A DNA stretch of 63,992 nt, counting the filler, from Collodictyon triciliatum (lineage: Eukaryota), in the NCBI GenBank assembly GCA_043381765.1. It is 28 parts of 28 records of this genome, joined end to end, with 100 filler letters (N's around TTAATTAATTAA, not from the genome) between each part and the next. Parts side by side here need not be neighbours in the genome. Positions count along the whole stretch, not along the records: positions 6,876 to 9,065 come from JBHJMP010009326.1; 27 more parts are not named here. One strand, written 5' to 3'. The translations under genes and the position numbers were made by a program. The notes under the pieces were generated by a model. It had not been told where the DNA came from and ran no database searches. It saw only the letters and a program-made list of their open reading frames with translations. Below, in pieces: positions 8,050-9,045 of this stretch; the first letter of the stretch is position 1; each line of letters starts with the position of its first letter.

Positions 8050-8165
8050 AGTATACCATTCTTTCGATTGGTAAACCTGGTGCGCTAGTATCCAAGGTCT
8101 CACCACTTTTTTTCACAAAGATTGTGCGGTGGCGAAGGCTGCCAGGAAAGACCCAACAGCCTAGT
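8050..8165 (-). ncRNA. Candidate Fanzor omegaRNA scaffold (four tandem stem-loops)
   Basis: On the minus strand just after the RuvC-III coding region: stems at 8136-8162, 8100-8135 (with nested CACAA/TTGTG), 8075-8098 and 8054-8073 (GAAA tetraloop). The position matches the TnpB/Fanzor omegaRNA location. Confidence 0.55.
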
Positions 8166-9045
8166 TTTTTAGAGGGAGGTGTATGCATATTTTGAAGGAT
8201 TAAAAGAACTTTCTTTAGTATATTTTTAGCGCTGTTAAAGTCCCTTGTCAAGAATACAGTTTGTTCGCTTTCTGAGCGATTGCGTTCTTTAGATAAGTGA
8301 CATCTTTACATAACTTTTTTTTTTGAATTCCTTTCGGCATGCATTCCAGTTCTTTTTCGCAGTTGTGGCACATCTTGGAGGTTATGAATTCATTCACACT
8401 CACTGAGTCAAAACGTTTGGATAGTATTTTTTTCGTAATCCTCTTCCGATTGTTGGCGTAAAATGCTTCATCGGATATTTTCTGCTCCAGCCTCCATTCG
8501 CCAGTACAACATCCTTCCCAAATGTCTTTTCGATTCGGTCCATAAACAACTGTTCACTTGTTTTTTGTATTAACGTGCTGTCTCCATCTCATCTTTCGAA
8601 AAGTTACTTAATCATAAAATCTGGTATAGTTCTATCTGGCATCTTGATTTCATAGATACATATTTTCGAAGTTTTTCATAATCGACCGCGCGTGAACTAT
8701 GTTTACTCAGTTCTGTCTCTAAATCGATCAAAGATAGTCTTGATGTCTCAAACTGCTGATTCTCTTCAAAGGTCATGAGACTAAAAGAAAAAGCACTTTG
8801 TAAATCTGTTGCCATGCATATCCCTGAAGCATTGCATATTTTTTTTCTTGCGTGCAAGAGTATTTTGTGATTTTTAAGAGATTTGCTATCATGTCTTCTT
8901 TGGTGTGCCATGTAACGTAATTTCTTACACGTCTCATCCGCCACGTAAACCAAATTAAACTTGCCTGCGTCCACTCCAACTATTTCATTTGTCGCTAATA
9001 AAGATAACTGCTCTTCGGAAAGTTCACTTAAATAAACATATTCTT
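8160..9045 (-). pseudogene. Fanzor (TnpB-like RuvC nuclease, Fanzor1/NCLDV-like), frameshifted and 5'-truncated by the contig end
   Basis: Reconstructed across about 4 frameshifts and 2 stops: YLSEL..EIVGVDAGKFNLVYVAD..LRY..QRR..ETELSKHSS..YEKLRKYV..FY..TFRKMRWRQHVNT..SEQLFMDRIEKTFGKDVVLANGGWS..MKHFTPTIGRGLRK.LSKRF..VNEFITSKMCHNC..VFLTRDFNSAKNIL. Confidence 0.88.

Follow-up and report, generated by a model that had tools for sequence, protein, structure and literature searches.

The minus strand of a small contig from Collodictyon triciliatum (assembly GCA_043381765.1) carries what is very probably the pseudogenised 3′ half of a transposon-borne Fanzor1 gene, which runs from RuvC-I to the C-terminus, is followed by a tail of ~120 bases and lies in a eukaryotic genome. 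The contig occupies positions 6876–9065 (2190 bases) of the window, i.e., the whole stretch of 63,992 nucleotides that was analysed, and all positions given here count along that window. In the proposed course of events, an intact Fanzor1 ancestor would have sat in a eukaryotic transposon ~240–260 bases upstream of a host-type open reading frame (ORF). Frameshifts, TAA codons and substitutions would then have inactivated this copy, leaving an inert relic with its catalytic triad kept, and its kin elsewhere in this lineage may remain active.

Fanzor1 is a eukaryotic, transposon-borne relative of TnpB. The protein binds an ωRNA whose template is the 3′ end of the element that encodes it; the guide part of this RNA, together with a short TAM, selects the target, both DNA strands of which are cut at the RuvC site of Fanzor1, composed of D, E and D with Mg2+. 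To our knowledge, Fanzors are the only RNA-guided DNA endonucleases of eukaryotes, and they are under development as compact genome editors. Diverse eukaryotic transposons encode Fanzor1, and the intact protein is described as a double-strand DNA endonuclease that has one RuvC site, is guided by the ωRNA, depends on a TAM and is believed to aid the persistence of the element (PMC10432273, PMC10530073). One survey describes 3655 unique Fanzor sequences, which come from metazoans, fungi, algae, a range of unicellular eukaryotes and viruses, and reports that a single genome can hold as many as 122 copies (PMC10530073); 42 Fanzor loci, 19 of them full length, are reported for Spizellomyces punctatus together with partial copies (PMC10432273). 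Since thousands of Fanzors have been catalogued and partial copies have already been described, one more decayed half-length copy adds little. The relic is of use as a pointer: its organism and close relatives appear to hold many copies, some of which are open where the relic is broken, and a proper assembly could give nucleases in intact form, along with their ωRNA and the transposon that carries them.

Ancestry of the relic

The relic was aligned, with a custom frameshift-aware script, to P0005, an intact metagenomic protein of 648 residues. The minus strand at 9040–8130 is colinear with P0005 residues 341–642, with 186 of the 300 aligned codons identical (62%). The initial annotation had stitched the minus-strand frames into a protein of about 290 residues, which agrees with these 300 codons, and the motifs it quoted, i.e., GVDAG, VNEFITSKMCHNC and TRDFNSAKNI, do sit on the minus strand where it had placed them. 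When the longest unbroken piece of the relic (P0001, 143 residues) was used as the query among longer proteins, one match was retrieved, which was again P0005 (59% identity over 96% of the piece, E = 6e-37). A tblastn search of the whole window with P0005 gave a sole match at 9040–8165 with E = 1.9e-50. The contig is matched at E ≤ 1e-3 by 133 of 151 family proteins, and all 214 tblastn segments of the family within the window fall inside 8000–9065, with no second Fanzor1 copy found in the window by these proteins. The homology of the relic is far beyond chance.

The homologous stretch comprises several pieces on the minus strand. Piece A (8615–9043), the 143-codon unbroken frame just mentioned, holds RuvC-I GVDAG and a helical insert, with homology to P0005 starting at 9040. 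Piece C (8434–8558) holds the SEQ..FG..GGWS..MK..PT.G.GL block of the RuvC domain, in which the S, G, G and W columns are conserved in the family. RuvC-II VNEF, a TSK motif and the first zinc pair CHNC (C at 8370 and 8361) lie in piece D (8329–8426), and RuvC-III TRDFNSAKNI with the C-terminal helix lies in piece E (8165–8283), where the R, D, N and N of the motif are found in 59, 60, 59 and 60 of 60 aligned relatives, respectively.

Taken singly, these pieces are too short to name the family firmly. Searched as four separate pieces against Pfam, they gave nothing beyond one match below threshold, between piece D and the Cas12f1-like TNB domain PF07282 (E = 0.0024, 18.4 bits, cut-off 26.3). 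Against the PDB, piece A gave no match and piece E gave chance matches only, while the best match of piece D was weak (E = 0.081), to the mimivirus "TnpB-like protein L79", amid chance matches to RecQ helicases. The intact reference is far more informative. P0005 matches three solved Fanzor1 proteins, namely GtFz1 of Guillardia theta (9cer, E = 2.1e-28), PpFz1 of Parasitella parasitica (9cf0, 2.7e-24) and SpuFz1 of Spizellomyces punctatus (8gkh, 3.7e-23). A profile built from alignment A1, which contains 48 full-length family members over 609 profile positions, matches SpuFz1 with E = 1.8e-107 over positions 6–600 of 609, PpFz1 with 5e-106 and GtFz1 with 1.8e-75, and its next PDB matches are to LaTranC at ~6e-4. 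PF07282 is matched by 33 of the 48 A1 members. The family is large and diverse: among 1.84 billion cluster representatives, 3147 relatives of P0005 were found at E ≤ 0.001 and 537 at E ≤ 1e-30, and the identity of P0005 to the other 47 A1 members is only 27–46%. Judged from sequence similarity, the relic's family is Fanzor1, neither Fanzor2 nor bacterial TnpB. The initial assignment to Fanzor1 is thus borne out by P0005 and by the A1 profile, which match the three Fanzor1 structures nearly full length. The same annotation had likened the FRKMRW..SE..FG..GxWS..MK..PT.G.GL block to Fanzor1 proteins of giant viruses and protists. The block does fit the family consensus, but the tie to giant viruses found no support in one scan of viral contigs with P0005, a scan that reaches close relatives only and in which none of 36 pattern matches was confirmed.

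The solved Fanzor1 proteins and the relic's family share, besides homology over the full length, the FRK..R, GxWS and PT.G.GLR blocks and a zinc ribbon placed between RuvC-II and RuvC-III. Compared with these proteins, the relic retains the 3′ half only, is interrupted by frameshifts and stops, and no longer has the Pro of its DPG motif or the second half of its zinc ribbon. The RuvC fold, the D-E-D triad and the inserted zinc-ribbon/TNB domain are also common to TnpB of IS200/IS605 and IS607 elements (OMEGA systems such as ISDra2 TnpB) and to Cas12f. In contrast to TnpB, the relic's family has ~650 residues and a eukaryotic setting, and its large N-terminal REC/WED region aligns with Fanzor1 and not with TnpB. 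For both TnpB and Fanzor, the guide RNA is described as a product of the element's 3′ end (PMC10432273). With Fanzor2, represented by ApmFz2 (L79 of Acanthamoeba polyphaga mimivirus, 9b0l), the isolated piece D shares the VNE.TSK.C..C motif, and ApmFz2 is its best, though weak, PDB match; however, Fanzor2 is absent from the PDB matches of P0005 and of the A1 profile at the thresholds used. P0005 itself starts with a basic KKRKR stretch, which may be a nuclear localisation signal.

The part of the gene that is missing from the contig is its 5′ half. P0005 has an N-terminal WED/REC region and aligns to SpuFz1 from P0005 residue 4, and the corresponding first ~340 codons are absent from the relic because the contig stops in a run of 19 G; this is a loss of assembly, and the element itself is not necessarily truncated. 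Other copies, seen in the sequencing runs X1 and X3 described below, extend 79–138 unlike bases behind positions 8983, 9026 and 9039. A fragment closer to the relic than P0005 was also found, which has 84 residues, is 77% identical over 45% of piece A and lies on a contig of 500 bases. A scan of metagenome contigs with P0005 returned one distant locus (L001, 21% identity), which is uninformative on ends or tails.

Active site and zinc ribbon

The relic was aligned, with an X placed at each break, with 60 full-length relatives, i.e., the first 60 of 116 family proteins of 560–760 residues. The acidic codons of the relic are D at 8971–8969 in RuvC-I, E at 8391–8389 in RuvC-II and D at 8242–8240 in RuvC-III, and the three columns are D, E and D in all 60 relatives. 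In SpuFz1 they align to D383, E541 and D606, which are reported, with N385, as the metal-binding residues of this enzyme (Saito et al. 2023, PMC10432273). The structure chain used, 8gkh_P, is an MBP fusion, and an offset of 394 read off the alignments places the triad at chain positions 777, 935 and 1000. Here the D of P0005 GVDPG aligns to D777, the E of VNEF to E935, and the RD of RuvC-III in the profile to R999–D1000. The D-E-D/zinc-ribbon layout that had been proposed for the relic therefore holds, with triad columns that are invariant in the 60 relatives and aligned to the SpuFz1 triad.

The surroundings of the triad are less well kept. The residue after the RuvC-I D is Ala in the relic and Pro in all 60 relatives (the DPG motif). 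In the zinc ribbon, the first pair, CHNC, is kept, its C columns being conserved in 48 and 51 of the 60 relatives, while the second half (8284–8313, minus strand) is degraded, with M, S and R in the relic at positions that are H (40 of 60), C (51 of 60) and C in the family. Read from these residues, the zinc ribbon of the relic is recognisable but degraded, which bears on function and not on ancestry.

Loss of the reading frame

Four frameshifts interrupt the body of the relic, all located on the minus strand by the frameshift-aware alignment. Frameshift 1, at 8629, lies outside homopolymers and adds a single base between the codons of QIE and those of YTRFY. Frameshift 2 (8559–8566) is one extra base at the A6 run 8561–8566, next to which base 8560 differs from every other aligned copy. 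Frameshift 3 (8427–8433) consists of two extra bases in an A7 run. Frameshift 4 (8315–8328) lies in or beside the A10 run 8315–8324, with its exact placement ambiguous. Four reading-frame breaks, most of them in A-runs, had been reported before, and this description is accurate, as three of the four body frameshifts are found in A6, A7 and A10. Several further lesions had gone unnoticed: an in-frame TAA at 8610–8608, inside the FY..FRKMRW block and opposite P0005 R483; an extra in-frame TAA at 8308–8306, before the second zinc half, in a column that is gapped in 58 of the 60 relatives; a possible fifth shift near 8161–8170, in the poorly conserved tail; and the lost zinc ligands.

Outside these lesions, the relic retains 17 of the 19 columns conserved at ≥ 90% and 29 of the 34 at the 80% level. 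Its conservation is within the range of the family members, in the lower part, with 11 of the 60 members scoring lower at the 80% level. Since conserved residues are otherwise well kept, the decay looks recent. With four frameshifts, two TAA codons, the altered Pro and the lost H, C and C, the relic would probably be unable to yield an active protein.

A reading of the breaks in the A-runs as programmed frameshifting or transcriptional slippage was also considered; it was rejected, because in other copies these runs are shorter and the frame stays open.

Related copies in sequencing runs

Logan contigs of four sequencing runs were aligned to the contig. Two of these runs, X1 and X3, are small runs of uncertain type (marked "RNA?", a guess). 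The host-type ORF next to the relic is present in both of them over 7214–7850, with differences at 7 of 506 and 8 of 434 positions, respectively, and 0 indels. The organisms of X1 and X3 are close relatives of the source. The relic region is represented quite differently from the ORF. The two runs gave 96 (X1) and 103 (X3) aligned contig pieces, nearly all on 8046–9045 and with 90–99% likeness, and up to 10 different contigs cover one place of the relic. The summed depth is 100–460 on 8494–9005 versus 6–9 on the host-type ORF, a sum over contigs that should not be taken for a copy number. The occurrence of many different variants in a single run nevertheless points to a multicopy Fanzor1 family in closely related organisms. 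The earlier proposal that this lineage hosts a Fanzor family is thus supported in part, by the many variants in the Logan contigs of two related organisms.

The other copies also differ from the relic at two of its breaks. At 8427, two bases fewer are found in X1 (39.9/39.9 of the contig depth), X2 (8.27/8.27) and X3 (132.3/143.3). At 8561, one base fewer is found in X2 (14.8/14.8), and G>C at 8560 is found in X1, X2 and X3. When the window sequence is read with the differences at 8427 and 8561, P0005 residues are obtained across both breaks, suggesting that other copies are open at 8427 and 8561. In public data, the intact members of the family include at least the distant relative P0005.

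Genomic setting and the 3′ end

The window consists of pieces of ~2.2 kb, with slowly decreasing lengths, joined by 27 linkers of the form N44-TTAATTAATTAA-N44, as in a pseudomolecule made up of unplaced contigs. As the window is a chain of unrelated small contigs, the sequence outside 6876–9065 gives no genomic context for the relic. On the 5′ side of the relic, the contig ends in the G19 run plus T (9046–9065), after which an N44-TTAATTAATTAA-N44 linker follows. Other pieces of the window carry eukaryotic genes, i.e., cyclin N and C domains, the N-terminal domain of an acyl-CoA oxidase, a fumarase-type lyase and NHL repeats. The neighbour of the relic on its own contig is the host-type ORF 7208–7837, which lies on the minus strand like the relic and has an ATG at 7807–7805. 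The initial annotation had called this neighbour nicalin, a label that finds no support in Pfam, one homologue search or Atlas: Pfam gave nothing but a chance-level match (0.09) to another family, none of 7978 candidates was significant in the homologue search among longer proteins, and Atlas gave no usable match. It had also described the element as markedly more AT-rich than the adjacent exon. This is correct relative to the ORF, as GC is 0.362 for the relic (8165–9040) versus 0.583 for 7208–7837, but the relic is close to the window mean of 0.37. Bins 7854–8045 are uncovered by the Logan contigs of the four runs, which in itself proves nothing. As no aligned run contig spans 7854–8045, the adjacency of the relic and the host-type ORF depends on one contig of 2190 bases.

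The cover by multiple copies ends between ~8046 and ~8067, which places the right end of the element roughly 120 bases past the last conserved codons and roughly 240–260 bases upstream of the ATG at 7807–7805. The 3′ tail of the element (8046–8175, minus strand) contains four predicted hairpins (8162–8050) and is a candidate ωRNA scaffold. Its GC is 0.47, versus 0.36 in the coding part. The fold of 8175–8046 has a minimum free energy of −39.8 kcal/mol and a z of −3.31, with 1 of 200 shuffles as good, a z that is inflated by bounds chosen post hoc; the wider stretch 8250–8030 has an unremarkable z of −1.62. No match to Rfam was found on the contig at E ≤ 1. The variable sites 8133 and 8123 lie in predicted stems and change G-U to A-U and A-U to G-U, respectively, both of which are compatible with the fold and too few to support it. 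From Fanzor biology, as described in PMC10432273 and PMC10530073, an ωRNA scaffold is predicted on the 3′ side, with its end at the boundary of the element, and the tail may have such a role.

A bolder reading is that the host lineage, which from the kinds of runs that contain parts of the contig appears to be a group of freshwater protists, holds an unusually high-copy, still active Fanzor1 family with intact members and a compact four-hairpin ωRNA scaffold, of which the relic, ~250 bases upstream of a host gene, is a recent casualty. This reading is doubtful at present. If it were true, new Fanzor1 nucleases could be drawn from the family, and the benefit of Fanzors to their transposons could be studied there in a natural setting.

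Alternative explanations

The breaks in the relic could, in principle, arise from homopolymer and other errors of a draft assembly, with the gene intact in the organism. No public sequencing run contains at least half of the sampled words of the contig, so that the three homopolymer frameshifts could be assembly errors. The location of these three shifts in A6, A7 and A10, the shorter runs of other copies at 8427 and 8561, the retention of 17 of 19 highly conserved columns and the contig terminus in a G19 run, which is a sign of fragile assembly, all fit such errors. The shift at 8427 is a pure change of run length, for which a slippage mutation and an assembly error are both possible causes. 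However, the shift at 8629 lies outside any run, the one at 8561 is accompanied by a base change at 8560, the two in-frame TAA codons require substitutions or a codon insertion, and the invariant Pro and three zinc ligands have been altered by substitution. Errors of run length cannot account for the 8629 shift, the two TAA codons or the ligand substitutions. Translation of TAA as a residue, under a variant code, is judged unlikely, because the window has stop-free standard-code ORFs of 587, 439 and 409 codons. An intact gene is thus very unlikely, and, roughly judged, the odds stand heavily on the side of a pseudogene over an assembly artefact.

The origin of the pseudogene also has to be weighed. 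Instead of a small cellular Fanzor transposon, the fragment could come from an integrated segment of a giant virus (NCLDV) or from another large mobile element. Fanzors are reported in giant viruses (PMC10432273, PMC10530073), the carrier is not visible with the 5′ side absent, and the GC of the relic (0.362) is lower than that of every long host ORF measured (0.38–0.58). On the other hand, the 3′ boundary lies only ~240–260 bases from a host-type ATG, the large number of 90–99% similar variants found within single runs agrees with a transposon family present in repeats, and the nearest solved relatives are cellular Fanzor1 proteins; that the viral-contig scan with P0005 gave no relative points the same way, weakly, as it reaches close relatives only. 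A viral or other large carrier is very unlikely, and the carrier of the Fanzor1 relic was probably a transposon and not a virus. It is extremely unlikely that the motifs cluster by chance or that the relic is a prokaryotic TnpB of contaminant or symbiont origin. The RuvC and zinc-ribbon core is common to TnpB and Fanzor, and the sole Pfam match is to the shared TNB domain, but the family profile aligns over its whole length, large N-terminal region included, to eukaryotic Fanzor1 (E of 1e-107, with LaTranC next at 6e-4). A contaminant is further opposed by the GC-rich host-type ORF on the relic's own contig and by the cyclin, acyl-CoA oxidase and NHL genes in the window, and the tblastn match of E = 1.9e-50 rules out a chance cluster of motifs.

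Architecture of the window

The window (1-63992) is a pseudomolecule, in which about 28 unplaced contigs, each roughly 2.2 kb and sorted by falling length, are joined by 27 linkers of the form N44-TTAATTAATTAA-N44 (at 2193, 4485, 6776, 9066 ... 61716). Adjacent pieces are not neighbours in the genome, and therefore findings that rely on context across a linker are unsafe. In contrast to the 44 + 44 N's of the linkers, the 381-base run of N's at 60003-60383 lies within a single contig and is a true scaffold gap. Most contig ends are homopolymers or microsatellites (poly-A/T, AAT, GA and similar), showing that assembly breaks at low-complexity DNA are systematic. 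The contig carrying the Fanzor1 relic ends in a run of 19 G's (G19, 9046-9064), which may be a sequencing artefact.

Host sequences

Host exons lie at 5323-5904, 21476-22072 and 40337-40732 (all minus strand) and at 34996-36315 (plus strand). Their Pfam matches are clear and comprise cyclin N and C domains, the N-terminal domain of acyl-CoA oxidase, a lyase of the fumarase type and NHL/SGL repeats. These exons confirm the eukaryotic source of the window, DNA with introns and AT-rich spacers full of repeats. On the relic's own contig, a GC-rich minus-strand ORF (7208-7837, GC 0.58) has an ATG at 7807-7805, and what follows it reads as a signal-peptide-like stretch. The initial annotation called this exon nicalin, a name that gained no support from Pfam, a single homologue search or the Atlas, none of which supported any other name either. 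Contigs carrying this ORF at about 98-100% identity were found in several freshwater and subsurface sequencing runs.

N-terminus of the closest intact relative

Nuclear localisation signals have been reported for Fanzors. P0005, the closest intact metagenomic relative found for the relic, starts with a basic KKRKR stretch (within residues 1-20), which looks like a putative signal of this kind, judging from its sequence.
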